Origin: Armatimonadota bacterium | Lineage (GTDB): Bacteria; Armatimonadota; Fimbriimonadia; Fimbriimonadales; GBS-DC | Direction of reading: 5' to 3' | Assembly: GCA_037445735.1 (NCBI GenBank) | Contig: JBBIJY010000006.1 | Location: forward strand, 45,759 to 109,758 | Length of the DNA: 64,000 bases | Position numbers and translations under genes: made by a program | Shown here: positions 6,662 to 63,269 of the stretch, piece after piece | Position numbering within the stretch: the stretch's first letter is position 1 | Layout: each line of letters opens with the position of its first letter | The notes under the pieces: model-generated | What the model saw: only the letters and a program-made list of their open reading frames with translations | Told to the model about the DNA's origin: nothing | The model's database searches: none

Positions 6662-7027
6662 TTACTCGACAGGCGAAAAGGCGTCGGGATAGTGGCGAAT
6701 CTGGGGGCGGTGGGCGCGGAGATCGACCACCACCACATCGAAACGGCACTCCTCATAGGGCAGGGTCGGGTTCTCGTCCAGAAAGCGCTGGGCGAGGCGG
6801 GTCAGCTGACGCTGCTTGCGCTCGTCGACGCTCTCTTCAGGGCTGCCGAGGGTATCGGAGCGGCGGGTCTTCACCTCCACAAACACCAGCGTTGCGCCCT
6901 GCATCGCGACGAGATCCAGCTCGCCCTCGCGACGGCGCCAGTTGCGGGCAAGCAGGCAGTAGCCCTGTTGCTGGAGCCATTCCGCCGCCGCCTGCTCGCC
7001 CCATCGCCCCAGCACGCTTCGTTTCAT
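6662..7027 (-). CDS. YraN/UPF0102 family protein
   Basis: LGRWGE, GELDLV, FVEVKTR, RFDVV. Confidence 0.93.
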   Translation of the reverse strand: MKRSVLGRWGEQAAAEWLQQQGYCLLARNWRRREGELDLVAMQGATLVFVEVKTRRSDTLGSPEESVDERKQRQLTRLAQRFLDENPTLPYEECRFDVVVVDLRAHRPQIRHYPDAFSPVE

Positions 7028-8697
7028 TCGCCTGTCTGACCGAAGTTGAACAGCACCAGCAACAGATCGGCGTCATCTACGACGCCGTTCCCATCCAGAT
7101 CGGCGGGCAGGTTCGTGCCGCTCTGCCCGAACGCGAACAGCACCTGCAGCAGGTCGGCATCATCAATCCCATTATCGCCGTTTATATCGCCTGGCACCAG
7201 AGTCACATTCACATTTGTCAGCCCTGGATAGCGCACCCGCTGGTTGGCGACCCGCTTCAGCAGTGTGCCCTGTGCGCGGATAGCCAGATCATAGTAGCCC
7301 AGATAGTTGAAGAAGCTCACGCTGTAGGCGCCCGTGCTACTGGCGGTCGTGTTCGCGGTTGCCAGCACGGTGCTGCTGTTGAGCGGGCGCAGCTTGACCT
7401 CCACAGGGCGACCGTTGTAGGAGCCAGTGAAGCCATTAATTGTGATGCGCCCGCTGATGGGCACGGTCAACGCCTGCTGAACGGCATTCGAGACGCTGAT
7501 GCGCCCGTATGCCACATAGTTGCCCGGCACGGGCACGGCGGTCGACTCGATCAGGGTGCGCACCGCCTGCGCCCGCGCCTGACTGCGGTCTGAGGGTCCG
7601 TCGGCAACCAGCGGATAAAGCAGCAGCGCCTGCGCCGCGACCATCGGGGCGGCATACGAGGTGTAGCCGTCCCTGTTACGACTGTAGCCTCCTGATCGGG
7701 TGGTCGAATAGACATCCCCGCTGGGCGCCGCGACATCGACCCAGCTGCCATAGGTGGAGACGCTCGATTTTGTGTCGTCCAGATTGCAGGCGGCGACGGC
7801 GATGCAGACCGGGTAGTAGGCAGGATAGAAGGGGTTCGTGTTGTTATTGTTGCCCGCGGCAGCGACAATCACCACGCCTGCGCTCCAGGCGTTATTCAGC
7901 GCCGTCTGCAGGCTGGACATCGGCGTGTCGCTTCCAATGCTCAGATTAATCACATGCGCGCCCTGCGCGACAGCGTAGCTGATGCCATCCAGAAGGTCGC
8001 TCAAGAAGCCCTGTCCCGCATCGTTGAACACTTTCACGGGCAGCACCCTGCCTTCAGGTGCGATGCAGGCGACGCCGATGCCATTATTGGTCACCGCGCC
8101 CGCTATCCCTGCCACGAAAGTGCCGTGCCCGAACGGATCGCTGGGGTCATTATCGTCGTTGCCGAAGTCGTAGCCAGGAAGGAGCTTCGCCTGCAGGTCG
8201 GGATGCGTGCGCAACACCCCTGTGTCCAGCGGGGCAACAATAAACTGGCTGCTGCCGCGCCAGTAGTCCCACGCCTGCGGGCAGCCGATATGGGGCAGTG
8301 CAGGTTGCTGCGGATAGAGCGGGTCATTCGGTGTCCAGTCGGCTAACTGCAGCTCCCAGTTCAGGTCGGCAATCGCCACCCAGCCCGACTGGAGCAGCTG
8401 GGCGCACAGCGCGGGCACATCAGCGAGCGGATTGACCTGCCAGAGCTCGATGCCCAGCCAGTCGCTGGTGCTCAATACGCGCGCGCCAGCCATCTGGCGC
8501 ACCCACGCCCGCTGAATTGGGGGCACATCGTCGCGAAACTTCACCAGCAGCTGCCCCGGCGCATAGCGCGACTCATGGCTCTGCCTGCTCAAGGCGAACG
8601 GCAGGCGTTGCGGGAACAACCGCCCTGCCCCCAACTCATCGGCAAATGCCTGCCAGCAACAGACCAGAAGCATAAAGAGCGCGATTCCCTTTCGCAT
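7024..8697 (-). CDS. Secreted S8 subtilase with C-terminal Ig-like and dockerin-like modules
   Basis: Signal peptide; triad motifs LDTG, GHGT, TSYAAP; AAAGN; two DxNxD..DDADLL repeats at the C-terminus. Confidence 0.92.
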   Translation of the reverse strand: MRKGIALFMLLVCCWQAFADELGAGRLFPQRLPFALSRQSHESRYAPGQLLVKFRDDVPPIQRAWVRQMAGARVLSTSDWLGIELWQVNPLADVPALCAQLLQSGWVAIADLNWELQLADWTPNDPLYPQQPALPHIGCPQAWDYWRGSSQFIVAPLDTGVLRTHPDLQAKLLPGYDFGNDDNDPSDPFGHGTFVAGIAGAVTNNGIGVACIAPEGRVLPVKVFNDAGQGFLSDLLDGISYAVAQGAHVINLSIGSDTPMSSLQTALNNAWSAGVVIVAAAGNNNNTNPFYPAYYPVCIAVAACNLDDTKSSVSTYGSWVDVAAPSGDVYSTTRSGGYSRNRDGYTSYAAPMVAAQALLLYPLVADGPSDRSQARAQAVRTLIESTAVPVPGNYVAYGRISVSNAVQQALTVPISGRITINGFTGSYNGRPVEVKLRPLNSSTVLATANTTASSTGAYSVSFFNYLGYYDLAIRAQGTLLKRVANQRVRYPGLTNVNVTLVPGDINGDNGIDDADLLQVLFAFGQSGTNLPADLDGNGVVDDADLLLVLFNFGQTGE

Positions 8698-8759
8698 CGG
8701 TTGACCTCCGCTCTATTATACACCAGTCGGGCTGGTTTCAAACGCGCCGTCGCCGCGCC

Positions 8760-8777
8760 TTAACATCCCGTTAACAT
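8760..8777 (+). promoter_or_regulatory. Putative Pho box (TTAACAT-N4-TTAACAT)
   Basis: Direct repeat with 11-bp period, 25-42 nt upstream of the pstB ATG; matches the PhoP-type TT(A/T/C)ACA box. Confidence 0.65.
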
Positions 8778-8801
8778 CGAATCGGGTATTACTCTCTGGA
8801 A

Positions 8802-9614
8802 ATGGCGGATCGGTTTGGCGTGGAGCTGTTGCCGATGGAGCAGGAGAAACAGGTGGAGCCGCCCGCGCGCATCCTCACGCGCGGACTGAATGTCTATTAT
8901 GGCAGCTTCCACGCGCTCAAAAATGTGGATATCGAAATCAAAGCGAACAGCATCACCGCTTTGATTGGTCCCTCTGGCTGCGGCAAAAGCACCTTCCTGC
9001 GCTGTCTGAACCGCATGAACGACTTAATTGAAGGGGCGCGGGTGACGGGCGAGGTGATTCTCGACGGCAAGAACATCTATGACCCTGATGTGGATGTGGT
9101 GGAGTTGCGCAAGCGGGTGGGGATGGTGTTCCAGAAGCCGAACCCGTTCCCGATGAGCATCTACGATAATGTCGCCTACGGTCCGCGCATGCATGGCATT
9201 CGCGATCGGCGCGTGCTGGACGAAATTGTGGAGCAGAGCCTCAAGCGTGCCGCGCTGTGGAACGAGGTCAAGGATAAGCTGCGCCAGTCGGGGCTGGCGC
9301 TTTCGGGCGGACAGCAGCAGCGACTCTGCATCGCCCGCGTGCTGGCGGTCAACCCCGAAGTGATTCTGATGGACGAGCCGACCTCCGCGCTGGACCCGAC
9401 CGCCACCTTCTATATCGAAGAGCTGCTGACCGAACTCAAATCGGAATACACGATTGTGATTGTTACGCACGGCATGCAGCAGGCGGCGCGAATCTCCGAC
9501 TACACAGGCTTCTTCCTGAACGGTGTCCTGCACGAGTTCAACACCACCGAGAAAATCTTCACCGTGCCCGATAAACGCGAGACCGAAGACTACATTCGCG
9601 GGCGGTTCGGATAA
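8802..9614 (+). CDS. pstB: Phosphate ABC transporter ATP-binding protein
   Basis: [45 protein letters not shown]. Confidence 0.96.
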
Positions 9615-9684
9615 CTGACCGCCTCGCCCCAATAGCAGGCAATGCCCCTCTTCTGAAGTATAATAGCGGTGAGGAGGAACTCAT

Positions 9685-10653: not shown

Positions 10654-10663
10654 GGAGACCTCT

Positions 10664-10873: not shown

Positions 10874-10961
10874 AATCGAACCGAGCCAGTAATCAGGCGT
10901 CTAAAAGCCCTGCGGGAGGTACACCCGTGCGTGTGCCTCCCTGTTGTGGCAGGTGAGTCCG

Positions 10962-15905: not shown

Positions 15906-16880
15906 TCAGCACCCTGCACCGAAGTTGAACAGCACCAGCAGCAGGTCAGCGTCGTCCACCAGCCCGTCGCGATTGAGGTCGGAGGCAGGGTCGGTGCTGC
16001 CGAAGGCAAACAATACCAGTAGCAGGTCGGCATCGTCCACGCAGCCGTCGCCGTTCGCATCGCCGTCCCGCGCCGGCACCCAGCCCAGTGCGGTCGGCAT
16101 CAACCCCGCGGGATAGCCCACATCGGTGAGCCGCGTCACCAGCGTCGCCACAGCGGTCGCCGCGCCATCATCCACCTGCAATCGCCAGAGCGCGGCTTCG
16201 GTCGCCGATGCCGTTGCTAAATAGAGCGTGCCATCCGATGCATCCAGCGCCAGTCCGCCCAGCTCATGATCAGCAGGCAGCCCCTGCAGGTCATACTCGG
16301 TGAACTCATAGAAGGGCTGATCCGCCATCAGCTGCAGGCGCAAGAAGCCGCGGCGCACCGTGCCGTAGAGCGTGTCGCCGACCCACTCGATACCCACCAC
16401 ATTCGCCACAGAGATGCCGGCGCCGCTGGCGACATAGGCTTCCAGCATCTCGCCATCAGGGCTGTGGGCAAACACCATTCCAAACGCGGGAAAGGCGGTC
16501 TGCGGTGCTGACCGCCAGAGTATCCCGCGCCCAAAAGCACCATCTCTCAGCTGGCGCCCACCCAGCAGGCATTCACAGTTCTGATAGGCGCCCACCTCAC
16601 GAATCGCCCCCGTGTACGGGTTCGCTTTCGCCAATAGCAGCTGATCAAATGCCCCAATGTAGAGAAAGGTGCCATCAAACGCCAGATGATTGTAGTCGGC
16701 GCTGGGTCTGATCCCCGCAACGCTGGCGGGTGAGACCGTGCGATCGATCGCGCCCGTGCGCAAATTATAGCGATAGAGGCTTGCTGTGCCTGTGCCCGCA
16801 CCGGACAGCCACAGATAGCCGTCCGCCTGCATGCTCGCGATCAGCATCAGCCATCCAAGCAGATTCGTCCCCATTCGCAT
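15906..16880 (-). CDS. Exported beta-propeller-like protein with C-terminal dockerin-like module
   Basis: Hydrophobic N-terminus; two DxNxDG.VDDADLL.VLF.FG repeats; start uncertain (16880-16895). Confidence 0.8.
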   Translation of the reverse strand: MRMGTNLLGWLMLIASMQADGYLWLSGAGTGTASLYRYNLRTGAIDRTVSPASVAGIRPSADYNHLAFDGTFLYIGAFDQLLLAKANPYTGAIREVGAYQNCECLLGGRQLRDGAFGRGILWRSAPQTAFPAFGMVFAHSPDGEMLEAYVASGAGISVANVVGIEWVGDTLYGTVRRGFLRLQLMADQPFYEFTEYDLQGLPADHELGGLALDASDGTLYLATASATEAALWRLQVDDGAATAVATLVTRLTDVGYPAGLMPTALGWVPARDGDANGDGCVDDADLLLVLFAFGSTDPASDLNRDGLVDDADLLLVLFNFGAGC

Positions 16881-16934
16881 GGCACTCATCTCCATCCCTA
16901 TTATAGCCCACAATGGGGTATACTACGGCTGGAG

Positions 16935-21428: not shown

Positions 21429-24400
21429 ATGGCTCGTCCCCCGATCCTTCCGCCGACGCTCTGGCAGGGCGGCATCTTCTCGGTGCACAGCCTCGCGCGG
21501 GTCAATCGCGAGCTGATCCAGGCACTGCTGACGCTGGACCCCGATTGGCAGGTTCATCTGATTGCCCGCGAATCGGGCGATTCGATTGAGAGCGCCGCCG
21601 GGCATCCCCTGCGTCGCTACCTGCTGCTGGGCGAGAACCCGCCGCCCGCAAATGGCTGGCAGGTGTGGGTGCGCCACCAGTTCCCGCCCGACTGGAGCCT
21701 CTCGCCCGTACCGCTGGCGGTGATTCAGCCGTGGGAGTTCGGCGCCGCGCCGCGCGACTGGGTGGAACAGATTCGCGCCCGCCACGCCCAGCTCTGGACG
21801 CCCTCCCGATTCGTATACGAAACCTTTCTGCAGGCAGGCGTGCCCGAAACGCAACTGCGCCTCGTGCCGAATGGGGTCAATCCCGACCAGTTCCATCCCG
21901 CTGTGCCCCCGCTCGATCTGACCCCCATCGGTCAGACCAATGTGCCCCGCGAGAGCATCCCGCACCGTTATAAGTTCCTGTTCGTGGGCGGCACGATTCG
22001 GCGCAAAGGTATCGATGTTTTGCTGAACGCCTATCGCGCCGCCTTCAGCCGTAAAGACGATGTGCTGCTGATTGTCAAAGATTTTGGGGCACAGGATGTG
22101 TACAGCCGCCAGAATCTTCAGGCGCAACTGCTGGAGTGGGTGCGTGACCCTGATGCGCCCCCGCTGCTCTACATGCCCGACACGCTGCCCGAATCGGCGA
22201 TGGCAGGTCTCTATCGCGCCGCCGACTGCCTGGTGCATCCCTATCGGGCGGAAGGCTTCGGCTTGCCGATTGCCGAGGCGATGGCGTGCGGAATCCCCGT
22301 CATCACCACCGGGTTCGGCGCGTGCCTTGACTTCTGCACCGAGCAAAACGCCTATCTGCTGCCCGCCGCAGTGCGCCCGCTGGAAGGCGTGCAGGGCTAT
22401 GAGCTGATTGGCACGCCGTTCTGGGCGGAACCCGACGCCGACGCGCTGATTGCCACGATGCAGGCGGTCGCTTCCAGCCCGCAGGCTGCCCGGCAGAAAG
22501 CGCAGCTCGCCCGCGAGCAGATTGTCAACCAGTTCAGCTGGAGCCAGATTGCGCCGATCGCCGCCCGATGCCTGCAGGAGCTGGCGCAGGAGACGCAAAC
22601 CACCGCCACCTATTATCACATCGGGCTGAGCCAGCTGGAAAACGAAGAGAGCGAAACCGCGCTGCAACTGTTCGCCCACGCCATCGATGCCGAGCCGCTG
22701 AACCCCCACCTGTACAAGGCAGCGGTTCAGGCACTGCTCCAGCAGAACCGCTGGGATGAAGCCGAAACCCTGCTCAATAAAGCGCTGGCGCTGCTGCCCG
22801 ACGCGCCCAATCTGCTGGCGCAGAAGGCATGGCTGATGCTCTACAGCGAGCGCGAGCAACAGGCGTATCCGCTGGTGATGAAACTGCTGCGGGCAGGCTA
22901 CGCGGAACCGAACTGGCTGCGCGAGGTGGTGCTGCCACTGAGAAACTACTTTGTGTGCAACGCCGGGCGTCAGCCGCGTCAGGCGCAACGCGCCCGCGCG
23001 TTAGAGGAGTGGCTCGCGCGCTATGGCGTGCCCATCCCCGACGAGCCGCTCGGCACGCGCATCACACTCTGCCTCGTCGCTCGCGACGAAGCTGAGTTTC
23101 TGCCCGAATGCCTTGAAAGCGTGCAGGGCGTCGTGGACGAGATTGTTCTGGTGGACACTGGCTCCACCGATGAGACGCCTGAAATCGCGCGCCGGTACGG
23201 CGCGAAGGTGCTGACCTGCGAGTGGGATGACGACTTCTCACGCCCGCGCAACCTCGCGCTGGAACATGCCACAGGCGACTGGATACTGGTGCTGGACGCC
23301 GATGAGCGGCTTCATTCGCGCAGCCGTTCCGTCATTCGCGAGGGTGCCCGCCACCCCCAGTTCGTCGCCTACTATATCGAGGTTGTCAACATTCTCAATC
23401 GGGAGAACCCGAATGACGCATTCATTCACCGCGCCATTCGCATGTTTCGGCGGTTGCCATGCGCCCGCTGGGAGGGTCGCATTCACGAGCAGATTCTGCC
23501 CAGCCTGTTAGCAGCGGGTGGCAAGCCCGCCACCCTGCGCAACGCCCAGATTATCCACTGGGGCTACGAAGCAGAGGTGATGCGACGGCGCGGCAAAAGC
23601 CAGCGTAATGTCCAACTTTTGCGCCAGACCCTGCACGAAAACCCGCAGGACGCCTTCCAGTGGTTCAACCTGGGCAACACGCTCTACAATCAGGGCGACT
23701 ATCAGGGCGCGTGTGACGCGCTCCAGCGCGCATGCGAGCAGATTCTGCCCACCGAAGATTACGCGCCGCTTGCATGGAGCCAGTGGATTTCCAGCCTGCA
23801 GATGCTCAAACGCTATGACGAGGCGATTCGGGTCGGGCAGCAGGCTCTGAAGCAGGGGCTGGAGCACCCGCTGATCTATTTCACGCTGGCACAGTCGTAT
23901 CTGCTGAACGGGTCGGTGCAGGAGACCATCGAAACATTAAAGCAGGCGCGACGGTGTGCAATGCGCATCGGGCTGTTGAGCGCGGATGGCGAGACCCTGC
24001 TCGCCTCCAGTGGCTACACGGGCGACCCCACCGTCGTGACCTTCAAGTGGCACCTGACGATGGCGCGGGCGCTGATGCTGCTGAACCGTCTGGAGGAGGC
24101 GGAAGCGCATCTGGAGCGCGTGCTGCGCGAGCGACCCGACTACGCCGAAGCGCATCTGGCTTATGCAGAATGGCTGCGGCGCAAGGGGCAATACGAACGC
24201 GCCAGCCAGCACTACGAGCAAGCCAGTCGCAGCCCGCAACTCACGCTGGTCGCCCTGCAGGACGCCGCCAATATGTGGTGGGAGCAGCGCCAGTACGCGC
24301 GGGCGCTGCCCTTCCTGGCGCGACTGGCGGAACTGCAGCCCGATGTGGAGGTCTGGTGGCATCGCTGGGTACATGCCGCCGAGCAGACGGGTGACCGCCA

Positions 24401-24818
24401 GGCGCTCTGTGAGGCGTTCGCCTATCTGGAGCGGCACGGCAAGCCGCTGTCGGCAGGCGTCCATCTCAACTGGGGGCGTGCTCTGTGCGAGCTGGGCAAC
24501 TATATTGAGGGACTGGAGCATCTCACGCGCGCGATCGAGCTGGAGCCGCAGAACGCGAACGCGCTCTTTAACGCGGGCGATGTGCTGTATCGGCTGGGCG
24601 CGTATGCGGAAGCCGCCGACGCCTATTCCGCCGCGCTGGAGCGCGACCCGTACAACCCGCAGGGCTGGTTCGTGCTGGGCAACTGCTACTTCCGGATGGG
24701 CGTGTACGACGCCGCCCGCATCGCCTTCCAGCAGGCACTCGCCCTGGACCCAAACCATGACCCCGCCCGCCAGAACCTCGAACTCACCGTCGAAATGATC
24801 CGCCGCACCGCTGCGTAA
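21429..24818 (+). CDS. Multidomain glycosyltransferase GT4-TPR-GT2-TPR
   Basis: RKGID and EGFGLPIAEAMACG (GT4); VDTGSTD, DDFSRPRN, LDADE (GT2); many TPRs. Confidence 0.92.
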   Translation: MARPPILPPTLWQGGIFSVHSLARVNRELIQALLTLDPDWQVHLIARESGDSIESAAGHPLRRYLLLGENPPPANGWQVWVRHQFPPDWSLSPVPLAVIQPWEFGAAPRDWVEQIRARHAQLWTPSRFVYETFLQAGVPETQLRLVPNGVNPDQFHPAVPPLDLTPIGQTNVPRESIPHRYKFLFVGGTIRRKGIDVLLNAYRAAFSRKDDVLLIVKDFGAQDVYSRQNLQAQLLEWVRDPDAPPLLYMPDTLPESAMAGLYRAADCLVHPYRAEGFGLPIAEAMACGIPVITTGFGACLDFCTEQNAYLLPAAVRPLEGVQGYELIGTPFWAEPDADALIATMQAVASSPQAARQKAQLAREQIVNQFSWSQIAPIAARCLQELAQETQTTATYYHIGLSQLENEESETALQLFAHAIDAEPLNPHLYKAAVQALLQQNRWDEAETLLNKALALLPDAPNLLAQKAWLMLYSEREQQAYPLVMKLLRAGYAEPNWLREVVLPLRNYFVCNAGRQPRQAQRARALEEWLARYGVPIPDEPLGTRITLCLVARDEAEFLPECLESVQGVVDEIVLVDTGSTDETPEIARRYGAKVLTCEWDDDFSRPRNLALEHATGDWILVLDADERLHSRSRSVIREGARHPQFVAYYIEVVNILNRENPNDAFIHRAIRMFRRLPCARWEGRIHEQILPSLLAAGGKPATLRNAQIIHWGYEAEVMRRRGKSQRNVQLLRQTLHENPQDAFQWFNLGNTLYNQGDYQGACDALQRACEQILPTEDYAPLAWSQWISSLQMLKRYDEAIRVGQQALKQGLEHPLIYFTLAQSYLLNGSVQETIETLKQARRCAMRIGLLSADGETLLASSGYTGDPTVVTFKWHLTMARALMLLNRLEEAEAHLERVLRERPDYAEAHLAYAEWLRRKGQYERASQHYEQASRSPQLTLVALQDAANMWWEQRQYARALPFLARLAELQPDVEVWWHRWVHAAEQTGDRQALCEAFAYLERHGKPLSAGVHLNWGRALCELGNYIEGLEHLTRAIELEPQNANALFNAGDVLYRLGAYAEAADAYSAALERDPYNPQGWFVLGNCYFRMGVYDAARIAFQQALALDPNHDPARQNLELTVEMIRRTAA

Positions 24819-31901: not shown

Positions 31902-32927
31902 TCAGAATCCCGACCAGTTCAGATAGGCGCGGATGAGGGAGGCAAGCGGTGCCCCGAAAAGCAGGGTCAGCTGCGCTCCCACTGTTAGAAAGGGACCAAA
32001 CGGCAGCATGCCAGGCATGGCGGGTAGCTCTTCTTCCTCTTCAGCAGGCTGACCCAGCGCGGTGTAAAGGCGTTGCTGCCAGCGGGCGGGCAACAGCATC
32101 AGTAGCACATCGAGCCAGAGCAGATAGATCAGGCACATCAGCAGGAGGCTGGGAATGGGTTCAGGCGGGAGGGATTCGCCCTCCACCTCGCCTGCCGCTT
32201 CCGACGGCTGACGGCGCGACTGCCACAGCGCCCACAAGCCGCCGATAATCGCGCCACCTGCCACCGCCAGCGCAAACGCGGTCAGCAACGCGGGCAACAG
32301 CAATAACGCGCCCATCGCCCGCACTAGCTTGATGTCGCCATGCCCCATCGCGTCGCGACGGAACACTACCCGCCCCAGAATCGCAATCAGGCAGAGAACC
32401 CCTGCGCCCACCTCCGCGCCCACAAGCGCATTTTGGAGATTCACCTCACCCCAGGATGCCCATGACCAGTCGGTGGGCTGATTCACAAGGAGCCATGCGT
32501 GCAGGAGACCCACTATGAGCAGGGCAAGGTTCAGCTCGTCGGGGATGATGGTGTGTTCGAGGTCAATAAAAAAGATGGCAATCAGAACGGCGCAGGCGAG
32601 CGCGTAGAGCAGGAAGCGCAGGGGCAGCTCGCCTGCCACCAGATGTTGCCACCAGAGCCAGCCCCACACGCTCGCGCTCCACAGCTCCACCAGAAAGTAG
32701 CGCACAGCGATGCGGGCACGACAGTAGCGGCACTTCCCACCCTGTATCAGATAGCTCAACAGCGGCACCAGATCGCGCACGCTGAGCCGATGCTGACATG
32801 CAGGGCAATGGGAAGGTGGAAAAACGATAGAAAGCCTTCGGGGCAGCCGATAGATCAGCACATTCAAAAAGCTGCCTATCGCTGCCCCGAAGGCAACGCC
32901 GAACACCACGCTCCATGCAGGTAGCAT
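31902..32927 (-). CDS. pilD: Prepilin peptidase
   Basis: GSFLNV..YRLP, CPAC/CRYC, IDLEH, MGHGDIKL, PFGPFL. Confidence 0.93.
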   Translation of the reverse strand: MLPAWSVVFGVAFGAAIGSFLNVLIYRLPRRLSIVFPPSHCPACQHRLSVRDLVPLLSYLIQGGKCRYCRARIAVRYFLVELWSASVWGWLWWQHLVAGELPLRFLLYALACAVLIAIFFIDLEHTIIPDELNLALLIVGLLHAWLLVNQPTDWSWASWGEVNLQNALVGAEVGAGVLCLIAILGRVVFRRDAMGHGDIKLVRAMGALLLLPALLTAFALAVAGGAIIGGLWALWQSRRQPSEAAGEVEGESLPPEPIPSLLLMCLIYLLWLDVLLMLLPARWQQRLYTALGQPAEEEEELPAMPGMLPFGPFLTVGAQLTLLFGAPLASLIRAYLNWSGF

Positions 32928-34147: not shown

Positions 34148-34162
34148 CTTGCTCGCCTCCTC

Positions 34163-35362: not shown

Positions 35363-35424
35363 TCGTTTGCGACCTCCTTGCAACTGGTTTATTGGTCAGG
35401 TTGACCCTTACGGGTGGTTCCCGT

Positions 35425-37194
35425 TTAGTAGTAGCCGGCGGTGAACACCACACGGCGCACTTCGTCAGGGGTCGTGACGCCTTCCAGCACCTTGATGAGT
35501 CCGTCCTCGCGCAGCTCCTTCATGCCGTTCGCTTTGGCGGCTTCTTTGATGTCGGAGAGCGGCGCGCGACGCACAATCAGTTCGGCAATCTCGGCGTTGA
35601 CCACCATCAATTCGAAGATCCCGATTCGCCCCCTGTAGCCGCGATAGCGGCACTCTTCACAGCCTGTGCCCTCCCAGATGGTGACGACCTGGTCGGGGTC
35701 TTCCACCTGGAATCCGAAGGCACGCAGGTCGGCGGCGCGAATCTCGCGTGGCTGCTTGCACTTCTGGCACACGCGCCGTGCCAGTCGCTGCGCCAGCACG
35801 CCCGTGACGGTTGCCGAGATGAGGTACGGCTCCACGCCCATATCGATCATGCGGATAACCGCCGAGGGCGCGTCGTTGGTGTGCAGGGTGGACAGCACCA
35901 GGTGTCCCGTGAGCGCAGCTTCAATCGCGATCTCGGCGGTCTCCAGGTCGCGCATCTCACCCACCATGATGATGTCGGGGTCCTGGCGCAGGAAGGCGCG
36001 CAGCGCGTTCGCAAAGGTCAGACCCGCCTTGCGGTTCACCTGCACCTGGCTGATGCCCGGCAGCTGATATTCAATCGGGTCCTCAATGGTGAGGATATTC
36101 TTCTCGACTGAGTTCAGCTTGTGCAGAATCGAATACTGCGTGGTGGTCTTGCCGGAGCCAGTGGGTCCTGTTGACAGCACCATGCCCTGCGGCTGGATGA
36201 CCAGCTCTTCGAGGCGTGCCTGCGTTTCGGGTGTGAAGCCGAGCTTGTTGAGACCGATCAGCACGCTGGTCTTGTCCAGAATACGCATCACGATCTTTTC
36301 ACCCAGTGGGGTGGGGATGGACGAGACGCGCAGGTCGTAGTCTTTGTTCTGGTAGCGGATGGGGATGCGTCCATCCTGTGGCAGGCGCTTCTCGGCGATG
36401 TTCATCTCCGCCATGATTTTGTAGCGGGAGATGAGCGGCGCCTGAATATACTTGGGCAGGGTCAACACCTCGTGCAGCACGCCGTCGATTCGGTAGCGGA
36501 TGCGCACATTGCGCAGCTGCGGTTCGACATGGATATCGCTGGCGCGTTCATCGATGGCACGCTGAATGATGATATTGGCGGCGCGCACGATGGGTCCCTC
36601 TTCGGCTTCGCGCAGCACGGCTTTCTCGTCTTCTTCGAGGTCGCCCCGTGCGCTGTAGGCAGCGACTTCCGACATCACGGAGGCTTTCAGGTCCGCGGGT
36701 CGCGCGGGCGTGCCGCCTCCACCCTCGCCCGCCGTCGTGCTGCCGTCGCCCGCGATGGCAGAGCCGCCATAGGCGCGACGAATCGCGTCCTCAATCGCGC
36801 CCGGCGCCGCCAGCACCGGACGCACCATGCAACGCGAGTTGACCCGCACATCATCGATCGCCATCACATTGTTCGGGTCCGCCATCGCCAGATAGAGAAT
36901 GTTGCCTTCTTTTTTAACGGGCATCACATTATATCGCTTGGCTATATGCTCTTTGACCACATTGACGGCGGAGGGGTCAGGCGTGGTGCGATCGAGGTCA
37001 ACGAACGGCATGCCCATCTCGTAGGCTTTCGCCTCGTAGGCATCGCGCTCGCTGACCACCGCCTGGTCCACCAGAATCTGTGCCAGGTCCTTCCCTGTGG
37101 TCTGCTGCACCCGCAGCGCGTCCTCCAGTTGCTCACGGGTGATGAGACCCTTCTCAATCAGGTACTCACCCATGCTCTTGCGTGTCATTGCCAT
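35425..37194 (-). CDS. pilB: Type IV pilus assembly ATPase (PilB/GspE)
   Basis: MshEN-like N-terminus, ASDIH, RLPQDG, GPTGSGKTT, LRQDPD, tetra-Cys motif. Confidence 0.93.
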   Translation of the reverse strand: MAMTRKSMGEYLIEKGLITREQLEDALRVQQTTGKDLAQILVDQAVVSERDAYEAKAYEMGMPFVDLDRTTPDPSAVNVVKEHIAKRYNVMPVKKEGNILYLAMADPNNVMAIDDVRVNSRCMVRPVLAAPGAIEDAIRRAYGGSAIAGDGSTTAGEGGGGTPARPADLKASVMSEVAAYSARGDLEEDEKAVLREAEEGPIVRAANIIIQRAIDERASDIHVEPQLRNVRIRYRIDGVLHEVLTLPKYIQAPLISRYKIMAEMNIAEKRLPQDGRIPIRYQNKDYDLRVSSIPTPLGEKIVMRILDKTSVLIGLNKLGFTPETQARLEELVIQPQGMVLSTGPTGSGKTTTQYSILHKLNSVEKNILTIEDPIEYQLPGISQVQVNRKAGLTFANALRAFLRQDPDIIMVGEMRDLETAEIAIEAALTGHLVLSTLHTNDAPSAVIRMIDMGVEPYLISATVTGVLAQRLARRVCQKCKQPREIRAADLRAFGFQVEDPDQVVTIWEGTGCEECRYRGYRGRIGIFELMVVNAEIAELIVRRAPLSDIKEAAKANGMKELREDGLIKVLEGVTTPDEVRRVVFTAGYY

Positions 37195-37231
37195 CGTTCT
37201 TCACTCCCTGTTGAGCGTCGGTCCGCCGTAT

Positions 37232-37272
37232 AGATTATAGCATGTTTCGACGGCGCGCGTATGGTATAATCT
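37232..37272. promoter_or_regulatory. Back-to-back divergent -10 promoters forming a 12-bp inverted repeat
   Basis: AGATTATAGCAT-N17-ATGGTATAATCT; TATAAT on both strands. Confidence 0.65.
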
Positions 37273-37314
37273 CTTTCGCGGGGCAGGGAGCGTTTCCTGC
37301 CACTTTTTCTGGAG

Positions 37315-38130
37315 GTGTTCCGAATAATGCGAATCGGATGGACGATTGTGATAGCATGGATGGCGCTGCTGATGGGGCTGGCTCAAAACGGGTCGGCGCC
37401 ACGCGGCGGCACCAAAGGCAGCGCCCAGAAGGACGACGGGCGCATCCCGATTGCACAGGCGGCGCAGGAGCTGTCCAGCAAATTCTCGGTGAAAATCGTG
37501 GTGGATCCACTGATGACGGCGCGCGTGCAGCCGCCGCAGGCAAAAGAGCTGGAGAGCGCGCTGAACGAGCTGGTGGGGCAGGTGTCGGGAGCCGTCTGGC
37601 GCAAAGTGTACACAAACAGGGTGCTGGGGCAGGAGCCTGAACCGGAAAAGGTGGTTGCCGCCGTGCGCGCCCTGCTCGCCATCGAACTGGGCGGCGTGCT
37701 GGTGCTCGACCCACGCACGGGCACGCTCCACTCCTTCGTGGCGAACTACCCGATTGCTCCCAACTTTGAACAGAGCCTGGAGCAGATGCAGCCGCCGTTC
37801 AGCTCCACCCCCATCTATGTGATCCTGGAGCCGCGCCCGCGCGTGCTTGCCGACCTCAAGGGCACGCGCATGGAACAGTTCACTAAAGTCCAGCAGCAGC
37901 TGCTGGAGCTGCTGGCACGCATGACACCCGAAGAGCGAGCACAGGCGCTTCGCGCAGGCTTCCAGATGTGGCTCAACGCCGATCCTGAGCTGCGCTACCA
38001 GATGATGTTCGAAGGCTTGCGCATGTCGTTCGAATACTGGCAGTCGCTCACGCCCGAACAGCAACAGCAGATGATGGAGGAGGGGCGCAAATGGTTCGAG
38101 CAATACTTCGGCGGGGGTGGCAATCCGTAA
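37315..38130 (+). CDS. Exported hypothetical protein
   Basis: Signal peptide; helical, Gln/Met-rich C-terminus; GGAGG SD favours ATG 37327. Confidence 0.78.
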   Translation: MFRIMRIGWTIVIAWMALLMGLAQNGSAPRGGTKGSAQKDDGRIPIAQAAQELSSKFSVKIVVDPLMTARVQPPQAKELESALNELVGQVSGAVWRKVYTNRVLGQEPEPEKVVAAVRALLAIELGGVLVLDPRTGTLHSFVANYPIAPNFEQSLEQMQPPFSSTPIYVILEPRPRVLADLKGTRMEQFTKVQQQLLELLARMTPEERAQALRAGFQMWLNADPELRYQMMFEGLRMSFEYWQSLTPEQQQQMMEEGRKWFEQYFGGGGNP

Positions 38131-38167
38131 GCAGGAATGTGCCCGAATCCCACCGAATCGCGAGCAT

Positions 38168-38950
38168 ATGCGCACGATAACGCTGGTCGGTGTGCTGGCG
38201 ATGGCGCTCGTCAGCCCACCCCTCTGGGGACAGGAAAAGATGGAACCGATAAAGAGTTCCTCCGTGAAACGGCTGCTCGTCGTTACACACACGGCAGGCT
38301 TCCGCCACACCGATTCGATTGAGGTGGGCGAGAAGATTCTCGCCGAGCTTGCCCACCAGAGCGGCAGGTTCACCGTCGACTACTGCCGAACCGCCGATGA
38401 GGTGCAGAAGATGCTCACGCCCGAATACCTCAACGAGAACCGCTACGACGGCGTGATCTTCCTCAACACCACAGGCGACATCGGAATCCCCGACCTGAAA
38501 GCCTTTCTGGAGTGGCTCAAGGGGGGCAAAGCCTTCATCGGCATCCACGCCGCCACCGACACCTATCACAATCGCCCGGAATATATCGACATGATCGGCG
38601 GCGAGTTCGCCTATCACGGTCGGCAGACCAGAGTGCAGGCGCGCGTGGAAGATCGCAAGCACCCCGCCGTCGCCCATCTGGGCGAGAGCTGGGAAATCTT
38701 CGATGAGATTTATCTGTTCAAGGAGAACACGCGCGACCGCGTGAAGGTGCTGCTGTCGATGGATCGCCATCCCGATGATGGCACGCCGAACGCGGGTAAG
38801 CCGGGCGACTATCTGCTCGCGTGGTGTCGGGATTACGGCAGGGGGCGCGTGTTCTACACCGCGCTGGGGCATCGAGTCGATGTGTGGCTCAACCCCGATT
38901 ATCAGAAGCACCTGATGGGCGGCATCGAGTGGGCGTTGCGCCTGAAATAG
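38168..38950 (+). CDS. ThuA-like domain protein, exported
   Basis: AGFRH, FLNTTG, GIHAATDT, DEIY, GRVFYTALGH. Confidence 0.88.
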   Translation: MRTITLVGVLAMALVSPPLWGQEKMEPIKSSSVKRLLVVTHTAGFRHTDSIEVGEKILAELAHQSGRFTVDYCRTADEVQKMLTPEYLNENRYDGVIFLNTTGDIGIPDLKAFLEWLKGGKAFIGIHAATDTYHNRPEYIDMIGGEFAYHGRQTRVQARVEDRKHPAVAHLGESWEIFDEIYLFKENTRDRVKVLLSMDRHPDDGTPNAGKPGDYLLAWCRDYGRGRVFYTALGHRVDVWLNPDYQKHLMGGIEWALRLK

Positions 38951-46887: not shown

Positions 46888-46946
46888 AGGATGTGTCTAC
46901 CCACCAACGCCTGCGAGAGGCTAACAAGAAGAGGAGGAGGTCAAAC

Positions 46947-48365
46947 ATGACACGCATGGGTTTGATGGGCAAGACGGTGCGCCTGACGATGGCGCTTGCA
47001 AGTATAGCGTTGACGAGCGCGCTTTTCGCGCAGGGAACATGGACATGGCAGCAACAGTGCAGCAGCAACGAGTGGTCAACCATCTGTCAGGGTTCCATCT
47101 GTGGCTACGACCAGTACGGCAACCCTGTCTATCGGTACATGAACAACTGGGGGCATGCGCCTTGTGGCTACCAGCCCGGTTTGCCCGGACCTGGCTCTAT
47201 TGTGCTGTTCCCGACGGGTTCTGGAGCGTTACTTGCCAGCAATGTGGACATCTTCAGTGTGACGATAGCCAGCGACGCCCTGCTGAACTGGAATTCGGGC
47301 ACGATGACTTTGCGCGACCCCAGCGGCGCCAATCCTGGCTCCCTGAGCATTCTCAGTGGAGGCACTCTGCTGTGGAGCGGTGGCTCGCTCGACCTGCGAA
47401 GCGACTCCAACGGCAACCCCGGCACGCTGACCAACGCGGGGCTGTTGCGCTGGGTGGGCAACTACGGGCACAGGTTGAGTGGGCTGCTGGTCAATCAGAG
47501 CCAGCTGGTTCACGAGGCGGGTAGCACGGCCTTCAGCACCGCCACCTTGCGCAACGCCAGCGGAGCCACTGCCGAAGTGCGCTCTGGCAGCTGGTACAAC
47601 AGCTCAGGCACCAATCGTGTGGAAAACAGCGGCACGCTGAAGAAGGTCTCGCCAGACCCCAACAATCCCACTTCATTCACCATCTCGGTCAACGCCACCA
47701 ATAGCGGTCTGATTTCGGTGGAAAGCGGCACGCTCACTTTCAATAACCTCACCCAGACCGACGGCGAGACCCGCATCTACCGCAACACCACGCTCTCGCT
47801 GAACAACCCGTTCGCGATGCAGGGCGGCAAGCTCACGGGCGCAGGCACGCTCAGCGGCAACCTCACCAACACCGCGGGCACGATTGCGCCCGGCATCGAC
47901 GACCCCGACCTGCCCGACCAGAACCCGCTCGGCATCCTGACCCTGCGCGGCAACCTGACGATGGGCGCCGACGCCGCCTTTGAGGTGGAACTCGCAGGCA
48001 ATAACAACTCCGACCCTGCCAACCCGCAGTATGACCGCCTCGTGGTGGACGCGAGCGGAACCACGCGCACCGTTCAGCTGGACGGCACGCTGCGCGTGAA
48101 GGGTCGGGGCGGCTATGTGCCCGCGTCGGGCGATGTGTTTGACATTCTGGTACGCACGGGCAGCTACTGGAACTTCTCAGGCGCCTTCCACACGGTGGAG
48201 GTGGACGCCGACACATTGCCGTGCGTGGCGTTTGAGGTGCAGTATCTGTCGGATCGGGTGCGGTTAGTGGCTCAGGCGGCGGGCAGCCCCGACATCAACC
48301 GCGACGGGTGCGTGGACGACGCCGACCTGCTGGCGGTGTTGTTCGCCTTCGGGCAGGGGTGTTAG
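46947..48365 (+). CDS. Exported beta-helix/passenger-like protein with a single C-terminal dockerin-like repeat
   Basis: GGAGG SD, signal peptide, G/T/N/S-rich strands, GTIAPG..LGILTL, YDRL; ends PDINRDGCVDDADLLAVLFAFGQGC. Confidence 0.83.
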   Translation: MTRMGLMGKTVRLTMALASIALTSALFAQGTWTWQQQCSSNEWSTICQGSICGYDQYGNPVYRYMNNWGHAPCGYQPGLPGPGSIVLFPTGSGALLASNVDIFSVTIASDALLNWNSGTMTLRDPSGANPGSLSILSGGTLLWSGGSLDLRSDSNGNPGTLTNAGLLRWVGNYGHRLSGLLVNQSQLVHEAGSTAFSTATLRNASGATAEVRSGSWYNSSGTNRVENSGTLKKVSPDPNNPTSFTISVNATNSGLISVESGTLTFNNLTQTDGETRIYRNTTLSLNNPFAMQGGKLTGAGTLSGNLTNTAGTIAPGIDDPDLPDQNPLGILTLRGNLTMGADAAFEVELAGNNNSDPANPQYDRLVVDASGTTRTVQLDGTLRVKGRGGYVPASGDVFDILVRTGSYWNFSGAFHTVEVDADTLPCVAFEVQYLSDRVRLVAQAAGSPDINRDGCVDDADLLAVLFAFGQGC

Positions 48366-58928: not shown

Positions 58929-58952
58929 TGGTTGCCTACCTCCTGCATGGGA

Positions 58953-59732: not shown

Positions 59733-59734
59733 CG

Positions 59735-61018: not shown

Positions 61019-61283
61019 GGCAGAAGCGATTATACCCCTCCGATAGGACTTCAGTTGCGCGGTGAATCGGCGGCAAGCTCATTCACTCCCTGGAAGCAGG
61101 AACTGTGCTGTTGCCAACGAACTGTTCCCTGCGGAGGTGAGACGGGTCGCAAGTGATTGAGCCAATCGGCGCGATGGGAACCGCCCTTGCCTCTGGCTGA
61201 AAGACTTTTGAGCGCGGATGGCGCGGTCGTGATGGCTCTGCTTTGATAATGACGCTATCTATCTGGGTTCGGGCACAGGTGCT

Positions 61284-63269
61284 GTGGATGGCAACGGCTG
61301 GCTCTGCAATGGCATGCTTCTGCTACCCGCTACAGGGCAAACGGCTTTCGAGCTGCCTTTCCCCACACTTGATGTGTTCCATTCGGGCTATTTTTACGTC
61401 TCTTCGCCAGCACCCAAGGGCACGCTCAGTGCCACGATTGAGTACGCCGATACCCAGGCACCAAGCGCGGTCGGACTGCTGACTTACCGTCTCAACGGGC
61501 AACTGATTGCCCAGTTTGACTATCGGGGTACCGCGAATGAGCCTGGCTACTACCCCGACGGCACGCTCCGCTTTGCCCGTGAATGGCTACCGGGCAACCG
61601 CACCGCCGAGTGGCGCTGGGACTACTCCCCCGACGGCAGCCTGCAATCAGAGACCTCGCGATTGGACGAAGGTAATCCCAAAGAAGTTCAGTTTGCCTAC
61701 GATGTGAATGGGAACCTCACTCGCTGGGGCGACGATGCCCCCGACTGGCGCTACGACTACAATCGGCTCTGGTGGGTTGGGGGGAGCCACCCGCACGGAG
61801 GCAGCTACAACTGGTATATGACCTACACCCCCAACGGCGATCGCGCCCGTTTGTGGAACGCTCCCCAACCCATTGAAGGCGATGTGAACGGGGATGGGGT
61901 GGTGGACGATGCGGACCTGCTGGCTGTGCAGTTCGCGTTGGGTCAGCAATGCCCCCAGGGCTGCCCTGAAGACCTGAATAGGGATGGGCAAGTCGATGAT
62001 GGAGACTTGATGATAGTGTTGTTCAACTTTGGGCAGAGCGCGGGCGAGGTGAGCTGGGGCTATCAGTACGATGTGTGGGGCAACCTGATGGTGGCGAGCA
62101 GCTCTCAGGCGGGCGTGGTGCTGAACGCAATCTACGACAGCCTGGGGCGTCGGGTGGGCTTGCAGGGCGTTCGGAGTGGCGTGCCGTTTGAGGTATGGCG
62201 CCTGTACGAGGACGACACGCTGCTGGCGGAGGTGGATTCTCAGGGTCGGGTGGTCGCCGAGTATGTATGGGGACCGCTGGGACCAATGGCGCGGTTAGAC
62301 TACAGCGGTTCGGGCGTGAGCTGTTATTATGTGCTGGATGCGCTGGGGCATGTGCGGGTGTTGTTGAGCAGTGGGGGCGAGGCGCTGGAGGTGTGGCGGT
62401 ACGACAGCTGGGGTGTGCCGCTATCGCCGCCCGAAAACCCCATCCCGCAGCCGTTTCTCTGGAACGGGGCATATGGGTACGAGTGGGACTGCTTTGGTGG
62501 CACAGGTCTGTACCATGTCGGTGCCCGCGCCTATGACCCCCGCACCGCCCGCTGGCTGCAGAGAGACCCGATAGACGCCGCCTCCGGCGACCCGAACCTC
62601 TATCGGTATTGCGGGAATGACCCGATTAACTGCGCGGATCCAACAGGTTTAGTGGTTCTACGACCTCCCCACCTAATCCAGTTTACCCAAGAGAGCATAG
62701 GTCAAAGGTTCAGAGATGGTCGCTCAATATGGGATCTGATAGAGGGACTAAAAAGCGGTCGCATCCAGCCACAAGATGTGCCACCCATTCGCATCTTTGA
62801 ATGGCAAGGGCAGCTCTATACTCTGGATAATCGTCGTCTTTACGCATTTCAGCAAGCAGGGAAAGAAGTTCCTACAGTTTGGGCGACACCTGAAGAAGTT
62901 CAGAGGGAGGCGGTTCATGGAAACAAGCGCTATCGGGGTAGTTCAACTCGTGTACGCGGGTTGGGACGAGCGCTGGGTGTTTTCGGCTTGCTTCTGTTAG
63001 GCGCGGATTTAGCTCGCGCAGCGGGCGCTCCTTGTGGGCAGCGCAGTGAAGCTGTAGGAAATGTTTTAGGAAGCTACGCAGGAGGTCTTGCTGGCGCTTG
63101 GGCGGGAGCTAAGGTAGGTATGGCTCTTGGATCTGCTTTTGGACCAGTAGGTACAGTTGTGGGCGGTGCTGCAGGGGCGATTATTGGAGGTATAATCGGT
63201 TCCACGATTGGTGGCGAAATCGGCGGACGCGTGGGGGGCTACTTTGATAACCCCTGCGAGTGTCCGTAA
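61284..63269 (+). CDS. Rhs repeat-associated core toxin (apparently N-truncated) with internal dockerin-like module, ParB-like C-terminal domain and glycine zipper
   Basis: YD repeats, GARAYDP..ARWLQRDP, NLYRYC, DPINCADPTG; FTQ..F.DG...PPIR...LDNRRL. Confidence 0.87.
   Translation: MDGNGWLCNGMLLLPATGQTAFELPFPTLDVFHSGYFYVSSPAPKGTLSATIEYADTQAPSAVGLLTYRLNGQLIAQFDYRGTANEPGYYPDGTLRFAREWLPGNRTAEWRWDYSPDGSLQSETSRLDEGNPKEVQFAYDVNGNLTRWGDDAPDWRYDYNRLWWVGGSHPHGGSYNWYMTYTPNGDRARLWNAPQPIEGDVNGDGVVDDADLLAVQFALGQQCPQGCPEDLNRDGQVDDGDLMIVLFNFGQSAGEVSWGYQYDVWGNLMVASSSQAGVVLNAIYDSLGRRVGLQGVRSGVPFEVWRLYEDDTLLAEVDSQGRVVAEYVWGPLGPMARLDYSGSGVSCYYVLDALGHVRVLLSSGGEALEVWRYDSWGVPLSPPENPIPQPFLWNGAYGYEWDCFGGTGLYHVGARAYDPRTARWLQRDPIDAASGDPNLYRYCGNDPINCADPTGLVVLRPPHLIQFTQESIGQRFRDGRSIWDLIEGLKSGRIQPQDVPPIRIFEWQGQLYTLDNRRLYAFQQAGKEVPTVWATPEEVQREAVHGNKRYRGSSTRVRGLGRALGVFGLLLLGADLARAAGAPCGQRSEAVGNVLGSYAGGLAGAWAGAKVGMALGSAFGPVGTVVGGAAGAIIGGIIGSTIGGEIGGRVGGYFDNPCECP

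Follow-up and report, generated by a model that had tools for sequence, protein, structure and literature searches.

The stretch of DNA analysed here (the window, 64,000 nucleotides) belongs to the 2.78-Mb genome of an uncultured Fimbriimonadales bacterium (Armatimonadota, 99.2% complete) and holds several genes whose products carry a dockerin-like tag. The gene at its left edge (1..1604, minus strand) encodes a signal peptide and a body rich in repeats, while its pre-tag domain and tag lie beyond the window at G000:C6:45464-45758. The original prediction had expected this gene to end in a tag, and indeed its frame, which continues for 295 bases beyond the left edge of the window to G000:C6:45464, ends with ...DDADLLIVLFNFGASGE; the frame has 642 residues, of which the tag occupies 588-640 (83.4 bits with a profile built from 57 tag copies). 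A secreted subtilase follows (7024..8697, minus strand), in which a Peptidase_S8 domain with a Fervidolysin-like prodomain (PF00082, E 5e-39) precedes a CarboxypepD_reg-like sandwich (PF13620, a weak match, E 0.0097) and a double-repeat tag (7027..7191, minus strand; 88.5 bits) that has no bracketing cysteines and ends ...FGQTGE, the C-terminal region reading ...GDINGDNGIDDADLLQVLFAFG...DLDGNGVVDDADLLLVLFNFGQTGE-stop. Since the edge protein and the protease are 41% identical in an alignment of their last 149 residues (E 2e-32), what had been taken for a linker before the tag in both is actually a common pre-tag domain of about 90 residues.

Further along, a propeller-like secreted protein (15906..16913, minus strand), of unknown family and with weak matches to DUF4394/DUF6923, carries at its end a double repeat closing in ...FNFGAGC-stop, that is, a GC-type dockerin tag (15909..16064, minus strand; 85.3 bits) with one cysteine in loop 1 and another as the last residue. 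A beta-helix-like secreted protein without a Pfam family (46893..48365, plus strand) ends in half a tag, the single repeat DINRDGCVDDADLLAVLFAFGQGC directly before the stop (48291..48362, plus strand; 41.0 bits, covering profile positions 33-57 only). Finally, an Rhs-type protein (61284..63269, plus strand), with an RHS repeat-associated core at residues 373-456 (TIGR03696, E 2.5e-18) followed by a variable C-terminal domain, contains a double-repeat module (61878..62036, plus strand; 81.3 bits; PF00404, E 2.1e-4) placed 409 residues from the C-terminus. The motif is present in all four stretches in which it had been claimed, two of which (7027-7191 and 15909-16068) are to be read on the minus strand; the copy quoted at 48289-48362 is where it was said to be, but those coordinates are two bases out of frame with the coding stretch. 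Being internal, devoid of bracketing cysteines and located on a protein in which no signal peptide was seen, the Rhs copy is an exception to the rule of a C-terminal tag on an exported protein.

The scores of the window members, together with the 100 stop-to-stop frames that the 57-copy profile matches in the genome at E<=1e-3, indicate that the motif is not a chance resemblance; the profile count had been suggested as a check of the original prediction. In 95 of these 100 frames the tag ends no more than 6 residues from the stop. By a crude rule of hydrophobicity and charge, the N-terminus is signal-peptide-like in 80/100 tagged frames, the remainder (about 20) including several contig-edge fragments, and the same rule assigns signal peptides to 66 of 75 tagged as compared with 583 of 1545 untagged long open reading frames, an enrichment that supports the claim of exported cargo. 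The cargo comprises proteases, peptidoglycan hydrolases, beta-propellers, lectin-like proteins and HAF-repeat proteins, with six peptidases and one LTD protein (L037) among them and no glycoside hydrolase among the tagged frames, in agreement with the view of the cargoes as unrelated proteins other than cellulases. For some of them (an M23 peptidase, SpoIID, a soluble glucose dehydrogenase and BamB-like propellers) the periplasm would be an equally suitable location, which weakens the predicted placement on the surface. The tag occurs in all 29 genomes of the family (six genera), with 15-121 copies each at E<=1e-8, and matches are found in 28 other genomes of the phylum.

The module consists of about 55 residues forming two calcium loops and two helices, the arrangement that defines a dockerin (a tandemly duplicated segment of about 22 residues in which an EF-hand-like loop is followed by a helix), and the two repeats are near-identical to each other. 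In an alignment of 81 tags, 76 copies or more have D or N at positions 1, 3, 5, 9 and 12 of each loop, and the loops probably bind Ca2+, with one ion per loop expected. Helix positions 10, 11, 13, 14, 16, 17, 18 and 20 are near-invariant across the 81 copies, in a tag family that spans six genera, as had been noticed from the window copies. The last residue is Cys in 66/81 tags and the penultimate one is Gly in 59/81. All 48 copies with a Cys in loop 1 also have a terminal Cys, whereas a terminal Cys is found in 8 of the 18 copies that lack the loop-1 Cys; a minority of copies lack both and end in ...GQTGE or similar. This co-occurrence, which is new here, implies a disulfide clasp between the two cysteines, and the structure model of the propeller-like protein's tag (15909..16064) puts residue 13, the loop Cys, against residue 56, the neighbour of the terminal Cys. 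In most copies the bond would thus join the Cys at position 7 of loop 1 to the very last residue, which would account for the '...G-C-stop' ending.

The dockerin-like character that had been proposed for the module is supported both by profile and by predicted fold, and we take it to be a true dockerin. The AF2 model (pLDDT 92.6) has two helices, at 16-24 and 43-51, and its top 13 Foldseek matches are all dockerin chains (best 2y3n_B, TM 0.82, rmsd 1.3 A), while calmodulin-type EF-hands give TM <0.31; likewise, the 81-tag profile ranks dockerins first among PDB sequences (8ajy_B, E 6e-9; 2y3n_B, E 6.5e-8). More precisely, we place the tag among the GC-type dockerins (NCBIfam NF041540), as the branch of that family found in the Fimbriimonadales; its members are also two-repeat dockerins ending in Gly-Cys at the extreme C-terminus of secreted proteins, and the alignment of the tags with this 67-position model reaches its last position. 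Membership is by relationship and not by cut-off, given that only 2 of the 43 places matched by NF041540 in the genome at E<=0.01 exceed its 29-bit cut-off (34.6 and 31.1 bits; the propeller-like protein stays below it with 23.4-27.8 bits) and that PF00404 (Dockerin_1) reaches E<=1e-4 in only 12/100 tagged frames. The former count, as well as the minority of copies without both cysteines, sets the tag apart from NF041540 and makes it a divergent, lineage-specific relative. The novelty of the module had, therefore, been overstated, the name 'GC-type dockerin domain-anchored protein' being already attached to a Fimbriimonadales homologue (P0041): what the present finding contributes is a lineage and some anatomical detail for a family already catalogued, and no new type of system emerges from it. 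A literature search for the GC-type dockerin family under that name found no paper.

With the type I and type II dockerins of the cellulosomes of clostridia and ruminococci (PF00404; 2y3n, 1ohz, 8ajy) the tag has in common the fold and the duplicated calcium loop and helix, but here there is no detectable cohesin, scaffoldin or glycoside hydrolase cargo, and the host is a diderm member of the Armatimonadota. The Clostridium thermocellum dockerin contacts its cohesin through Ser-Thr at helix positions 10/11 and Lys-Arg at 17/18; in the present tag these positions are occupied by Asp-Ala and Leu-Phe, respectively. The covalent Cys-Cys clasp would be an additional feature with respect to those dockerins; the clasp reported for the Ruminococcus flavefaciens ScaA dockerin is non-covalent (PMC3821032).

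The original prediction had seen no cohesin in the window, and none is detectable on a larger scale. The Pfam cohesin model (PF00963) gives no match at E<=1 in this genome or in any of the 29 genomes of the family, and the 33 other genomes searched within the order likewise give none, although the same search works in the phylum, where it finds cohesins in 45 of 301 genomes; a family lacking Pfam cohesins in a phylum that has them is a further new observation. Among the 28 other phylum genomes in which the tag is matched, G023 is the only one where a cohesin is matched too, and a dedicated profile of 21 Armatimonadota cohesin domains returned nothing credible in the genome, its best hit (E 0.062) being an amylase-like ORF. 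SLH-anchored scaffoldins were also considered and discarded, the SLH proteins of the genome being OmpM-like porins and unrelated proteins. These results bear on the possibility that there is a cohesin whose divergence hides it from sequence profiles and that the tagged proteins build a non-cellulolytic, cellulosome-like complex resembling the 'planctosome'. Each top structural neighbour of the tag was solved in complex with a cohesin, and near-identical repeats are also found in dockerins with a dual binding mode. Furthermore, the planctosome hypothesis (PMC6461901) concerns freshwater Phycisphaerae, non-cellulolytic diderms with non-cellulosomal cohesin/dockerin proteins, in which dockerins are found on peptidases and lamin-tail-domain proteins, much as in the cargo described here. 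That model is built on cohesin domains encoded within the same genomes, whereas here none is detectable, and a divergent cohesin is considered unlikely.

A different line of evidence comes from other C-terminal addresses. The genome has 31 separate PEP-CTERM (TIGR02595) matches and an exosortase (PF09721), and 8 of 30 PEP-CTERM proteins have a paralogue with a dockerin tag. In two such pairs (58% identity over 250 aa and 57% over 232 aa) the alignment extends from the signal peptide to the final residue of the cargo; from there one protein continues with VPEP/IPEP and a membrane helix and the other with the dockerin. The two elements are alike only as addresses at the C-terminus of Sec-exported proteins, PEP-CTERM being a short motif that is joined to a membrane helix and basic tail and is a substrate of exosortase, and the dockerin a soluble folded Ca2+ domain with neither a PEP motif nor a hydrophobic helix. 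That paralogous cargo carries one or the other at precisely one and the same junction is also new here and argues for a role as an envelope address.

This interchangeability with a predicted sorting signal, along with the position of the tag at the extreme C-terminus of Sec substrates, would also suit a secretion or sorting signal, possibly removed afterwards, that is read by an outer-membrane translocation/processing machinery in the manner of the T9SS C-terminal domain or of PEP-CTERM/exosortase, perhaps via a type II secretion/pseudopilin apparatus. The host is diderm (OmpM-like SLH porins, three secretins), so that exported proteins need a route across the outer membrane, and a tagged gene is no more than two genes away from 9 of 18 prepilin-type DUF1559 genes, the baseline being 13%. 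However, around the tags of relatives pilin adjacency falls to about chance (4/80 loci), a search of the genome for the T9SS-type tail (TIGR04183, Por_Secre_tail) gives nothing at E<=0.01, no enzyme dedicated to processing the tag came to light, and a folded, disulfide-clasped Ca2+ domain with a protein-binding fold is unlike the known linear or beta-sandwich signals, which makes a sorting signal improbable. Least probable is that the tag has no protein partner at all and binds exopolysaccharide, an LPS-like glycan or peptidoglycan, or merely stabilizes or solubilizes exported proteins in a Ca2+-rich milieu: several kinds of search found no receptor gene, acidic loops could bridge Ca2+ to anionic polymers and PEP-CTERM is linked to exopolysaccharide-producing systems, but the near-invariant helix positions exceed the need of a stabilizing role and are typical of a specific interface, and we know of no glycan-binding dockerin.

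The preferred reading, to which we give a probability of roughly 55%, is that a stapled Ca2+ dockerin holds about 100 exported proteins on the envelope via one shared non-cohesin partner; that these proteins reside on the envelope and that there is just one partner is what we infer from the evidence above. The cargo would be exported by Sec through its N-terminal signal peptide and, outside the cytoplasm, the tag would fold and oxidize; as a C-terminal address, it would then keep these different proteins on the cell envelope through Ca2+-dependent binding to a conserved partner that is not a recognizable cohesin, as a functional alternative to the PEP-CTERM anchor used on paralogous cargo in the same genome. 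A broader and more tentative proposal, which we regard as possible but rather doubtful, is that GC-type dockerins are a cohesin-independent envelope-address system of diderms, which would join PEP-CTERM/exosortase and the T9SS C-terminal domain as a third kind. In it, some conserved receptor or export component other than a cohesin might read a disulfide-clasped Ca2+ plug and would place some 4% of the proteome either on the outer membrane or beyond it. The pseudopilin-like DUF1559 proteins could be one candidate for such a component.

Orphan dockerins, from organisms without cohesins, have reportedly been on record from the time of the comparative surveys made in the late 2000s, such as that of Peer et al. 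This hot-spring-type Fimbriimonadales family looks like a clean natural system for what they bind, with about 100 nearly identical tags per small genome, a family in which no cohesin was found, and paralogue pairs that differ only in the dockerin or PEP-CTERM anchor as built-in controls. The partner, if found, would explain the positioning of a large share of the secretome in several poorly studied phyla, and could provide protein engineering with a compact docking pair that depends on Ca2+ and is clasped covalently. As a minor point, the name chosen for the family by the NCBI curators contains the word 'anchored', in line with an anchor reading.

The tag found on exported proteins of this genome, a module of about 55 residues comprising two calcium loops and two helices, is a dockerin by fold and descent, and forms a divergent branch of the GC-type family, as follows from profile matches, the predicted fold and the conservation of calcium-ligand and helix positions. 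The original observation is confirmed and its interpretation half right: exported proteins that are not cellulolytic carry a C-terminal address of the dockerin type, with no cohesin visible. The family is already catalogued, as NCBIfam NF041540 ('GC-type dockerin domain-anchored protein'). What is added here is the Armatimonadota branch of the GC-type dockerins with its family-wide expansion, the covariation of cysteines in the tag, the absence of cohesins across the family as measured against a positive control from the same phylum, and the exchange of PEP-CTERM and dockerin tails inside one genome. A literature search for 'GC-type dockerin' found no paper, and among publications with both 'dockerin' and 'Armatimonadetes' none was about this tag, as judged by title.

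In the window, the motif was confirmed in the four stretches from which it had been described, once each was read on the proper strand. A subtilase (7024-8697, - strand; Peptidase_S8, E 5e-39) carries two repeats of the consensus D-x-N-x-D-G-x-[VI]-D-D-A-D-L-L-x-V-L-F-x-F-G at its C-terminus; the same double repeat is found in the protein encoded at 15906-16913 (- strand), the last residues of which are ...FGAGC-stop, while a single repeat closes the product of 46893-48365 (+ strand; ...FGQGC-stop) and an internal double repeat is found in an Rhs-type protein (61284-63269, + strand; TIGR03696 core, E 2.5e-18). The gene cut by the left edge, guessed to end in a tag, does so: its frame runs 295 bases past the window edge and has a full tag at its end. 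The stretch preceding the tag in this protein and in the protease had been taken for a linker; it is instead a shared domain of approximately 90 residues, since the last 149 residues of the two proteins align with 41% identity (E 2e-32), and in the protease it is weakly matched by CarboxypepD_reg (E 0.0097). The tagged genes of the window are scattered and form no operon.

In the whole genome (2.78 Mb in 59 contigs, 62% G+C, 99.2% completeness), of which the window occupies C6:45759-109758, a profile built from 57 copies detects the tag in 100 stop-to-stop frames at E ≤ 1e-3, and in 95 of them the tag is C-terminal, ending no more than six residues from the stop codon. The five exceptions are the Rhs-type protein, two frames with 13-27 extra residues, one frame at a contig edge and one half tag near a start; about ten tags in the genome consist of a single repeat. 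When ORFs of 90 residues or more are chosen greedily, 97 of the resulting 2442 (about 4%) are tagged, and 24 of these have a tagged neighbour. Two tagged frames of 694 residues (L004, C1:68284-70368, and L005, C1:71188-73272), separated by a few hundred bases, have the same Pfam matches and are identical in their signal-peptide regions and at the ends of their tags, and look like a recent tandem duplication.

Co-occurrence with signal peptides was assessed with a crude rule (a net positive N-region followed by 10 uncharged residues, mean hydropathy ≥1.6), by which 80 of the 100 tagged frames begin with a signal-peptide-like sequence, several of those failing it being contig-edge fragments. The rule is permissive, since 38% of controls pass. 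In a comparison of ORFs that do not overlap and have 200 residues or more, such starts are enriched in those that carry the tag (66/75, versus 583/1545 untagged). With respect to the cargo, no glycoside hydrolase catalytic domain was detected in the 100 frames (Pfam, E ≤ 1e-4), in agreement with the expectation that the tagged proteins are not cellulases. The same census yields propellers of the WD40 type (nine frames) and of the PQQ_2/BamB-like type (three), FG-GAP proteins (two), BNR/sortilin proteins (three), six peptidases (S8 and M23, two each, M10 and M1), two galactose-oxidase-like E-set proteins, one frame each with a soluble glucose dehydrogenase, SpoIID, a lamin-tail domain and a C-type lectin, and several PPC, Big_3_5 or CarboxypepD_reg sandwiches; 60 frames are without any cargo family.

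The Pfam model Dockerin_1 matches just 12 of the 100 tagged frames at E ≤ 1e-4. NF041540 matches at 43 places in the genome (E ≤ 0.01), with the alignment reaching the last position of the model, and its cut-off of 29 bits is exceeded at only two of them. When a profile of 81 tags was compared with the sequences of the PDB, the dockerin chains 8ajy_B (E 6e-9) and 2y3n_B (E 6.5e-8) were retrieved, with calmodulins far behind. The AlphaFold2 model obtained from the tag alignment (pLDDT 92.6) contains helices at residues 16-24 and 43-51, and in a Foldseek search of the PDB its top 13 matches are all dockerin chains, nearly all from cohesin complexes, the best being 2y3n_B (TM 0.82, rmsd 1.3 Å, 35% identity); EF-hand proteins remain below a TM of 0.31. 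Across the 81 copies, the calcium-ligand positions 1, 3, 5, 9 and 12 are Asp or Asn in at least 76 in both loops, and the helix positions 10, 11, 13, 14, 16, 17, 18 and 20 are nearly invariant, with position 15 free.

A further feature of the module is a pair of cysteines. Among the 66 of 87 full-length C-terminal tags that could be parsed by pattern (the other 21 rows being excluded), all 48 with Cys at position 7 of loop 1 also have a Cys among the last three residues, while in the 18 tags lacking the loop-1 Cys the terminal one is present in eight and absent in 10 (Fisher p 2e-7); in some of these eight, a Cys immediately before the loop takes its place. Of the 81 aligned tags, 59 contain the loop Cys and 66 have Cys as the final residue. 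Since the two cysteines co-occur, and since in the model the loop Cys (residue 13) is paired with residue 56, adjacent to the terminal Cys 57, the data point to a predicted disulfide joining both ends of the module, which would fit with folding outside the cytoplasm. A Cys-free minority, ending in ...G[QA][ST]GE, includes the subtilase of the window (7024-8697) and the edge protein.

The strongest evidence here on the function of the tag comes from its exchange with another C-terminal address. The genome contains 31 PEP-CTERM matches and an exosortase, and no T9SS-type tail (TIGR04183). Upon removal of the tails, paralogues tagged with the dockerin are found (E ≤ 1e-5) for eight of the 30 PEP-CTERM proteins, and one HAF-repeat PEP-CTERM protein has 13. 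In two pairs the junction is exact. The PEP-CTERM protein at C12:28059-28901 and the tagged protein at C3:110709-111641 are 58% identical along a stretch of 250 residues that begins at the signal peptide, up to ...YLDDFAQI followed by PEPAS and a helix in the former, and ...YLDDIETI followed by the dockerin in the latter; those at C19:48154-48966 (PEP-CTERM) and C6:15167-16513 (tagged) are 57% identical over 232 residues, and ...EAFLLDT ends both cargos before VPEPAS... and WRTGDTNGDGCIDD..., respectively. Therefore, homologous cargo receives either a PEP-CTERM or a dockerin address. As judged from sequence, the dockerin would serve localisation rather than, e.g., catalysis or enzyme-enzyme synergy. 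In one frame (L093, C41:455-2509), a PEP-CTERM match (C41:1214-1285) is followed by HAF-type repeats and a dockerin tag with no stop between; these may be two in-frame genes, or the two address types may have been joined by read-through or fusion.

In the family of the genome under study, each of the 29 genomes (six genera) has between 15 and 121 copies of the tag at E ≤ 1e-8, with the fewest in the least complete genomes. In the sister family, nine of 31 genomes match, two of one genus with at least 21 matches of weaker scores, and of 301 genomes sampled evenly across the phylum, 29 have at least one match at E ≤ 1e-5, mostly one to five weak ones. The best 80 related loci of a species-level genome collection are all, by record title, from Fimbriimonadales/Armatimonadota or unclassified 'bacterium' MAGs. 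Among 1.84 billion cluster representatives, the tag profile matches 25,359 proteins at E ≤ 1e-3, a number that falls to 1,580 at E ≤ 1e-10 and to 22 at E ≤ 1e-30, and in some of them the repeats number up to 15. Proteins found in this way include poly-dockerins, in which the repeat is present in many tandem copies (P0249, P0250 and P0251), for example 15 matched stretches in 2148 residues and eight in 377. With the tag of the protein at 15906-16913 as query, a word-indexed search returned 1515 proteins (E ≤ 1e-5); of the 120 matches listed, one bears the NCBI name 'GC-type dockerin domain-anchored protein [Fimbriimonadales bacterium]' and one is named 'dockerin type I domain-containing protein', most being 'hypothetical'.

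That no cohesin is visible holds for this genome and for its whole family. The cohesin model PF00963 gives no match at E ≤ 1 in the genome or in any of the 29 genomes of the family, none in 33 sampled genomes of the order outside the family and none in five genomes from other parts of the phylum that carry the tag. The search does work in this phylum, since cohesins are matched in 45 of 301 genomes, 36 of them over the cut-off; only one genome (G023) is common to the lists of tag-bearing and cohesin-bearing genomes. A divergent cohesin was sought with an HMM based on 21 cohesin domains, encoded at 12 loci of Armatimonadota and searched against ORFs of at least 100 residues, and nothing credible emerged, the best match in the genome (E 0.062) being a GH13-like ORF rejected on inspection. 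The organism is diderm, with two OmpM-like SLH-coiled-coil-barrel proteins and three secretins; an SLH-anchored scaffoldin was discarded, none of the four SLH matches (two OmpM-like porins, one resembling a FAD-type enzyme and one small protein) being cohesin-like. Untagged ORFs with internal repeats, identified by fragment BLAST as possible scaffoldins, proved to be ordinary families or barrel-like: of the eight, seven were scanned against Pfam (L219 being left out), five of which are sortilin/BNR, TPR-CHAT, NHL-thioredoxin, amidohydrolase and CarboxypepD_reg-rich giant proteins, while the other two, with no Pfam family, appear by eye as a large barrel-like protein and a beta-helix-like one, respectively. 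A secreted protein of 1823 residues (L225, C4:75251-80722) combines four CarboxypepD_reg domains with an FlgD_ig-like one near its C-terminus (1739-1808), of a type typical of T9SS tails, though TIGR04183 gives no match in this genome.

Other candidate partners were sought in the neighbourhood of tagged genes, where 305 untagged genes lie no more than two genes away; the prepilin-type DUF1559 proteins (PF07963 and PF07596) are the only plausible recurrent family among them. Nine of 18 lie beside tagged genes, versus a 13% baseline (binomial p 2e-4, a value inflated by two tandem pairs), and co-oriented copies between or beside tagged genes at C18:38117-41566, C20:24893-30415, C8:42949-46554 and C43:8643-11572 apparently share operons with them. 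The adjacency was not reproduced near relatives' tags (just four of 80 loci, 439 kb in all, about the chance expectation), and a co-fold of one DUF1559 protein (residues 30-270, with alignment) with the tag scored 0.02, which bears on binding neither way. DUF1559 is a lead only. Five paralogues of about 215 residues (L227-L231, e.g. C24:20256-20891), consisting of a signal peptide, a CBM-like jelly roll ending in ...LLLVEQDW and a PEP-CTERM anchor, belong to a Fimbriimonadales-restricted family with 341 database relatives at E ≤ 1e-3. They were rejected as sockets: modelling (pLDDT 87.2) yields a generic CBM-like jelly roll, none of the listed Foldseek matches being a cohesin, and their phyletic pattern departs from that of the tags, full-length copies being absent from a 100% complete genome of the family with 121 tags (G323). 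The tally of this family, 91/121, includes one unpublished genome (G341), and no claim is built on it. PEP-CTERM proteins in general fail as membrane-anchored sockets, five of 25 adjoining tagged genes, near the 13% baseline, and as cohesins, hhalign of 31 ORFs against a cohesin alignment giving probabilities ≤2.5%.

The remaining genes of the window are ordinary housekeeping genes and a type IV pilus/type II secretion row (31905-38373, - strand), which encodes a prepilin peptidase (A24), a T2SSF platform protein, two T2SSE ATPases, one with an MshEN domain, and an unassigned ORF of 390 residues. Immediately 3' of the Rhs gene, 63292-63924 (+ strand) matches DUF7660 (E 3e-11) and, judging by position, may encode an immunity protein that protects against the C-terminal domain of Rhs. 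Finally, 21429-24818 (+ strand) encodes a protein of 1129 residues in which GT4 and GT2 glycosyltransferase domains are fused with a long TPR array.
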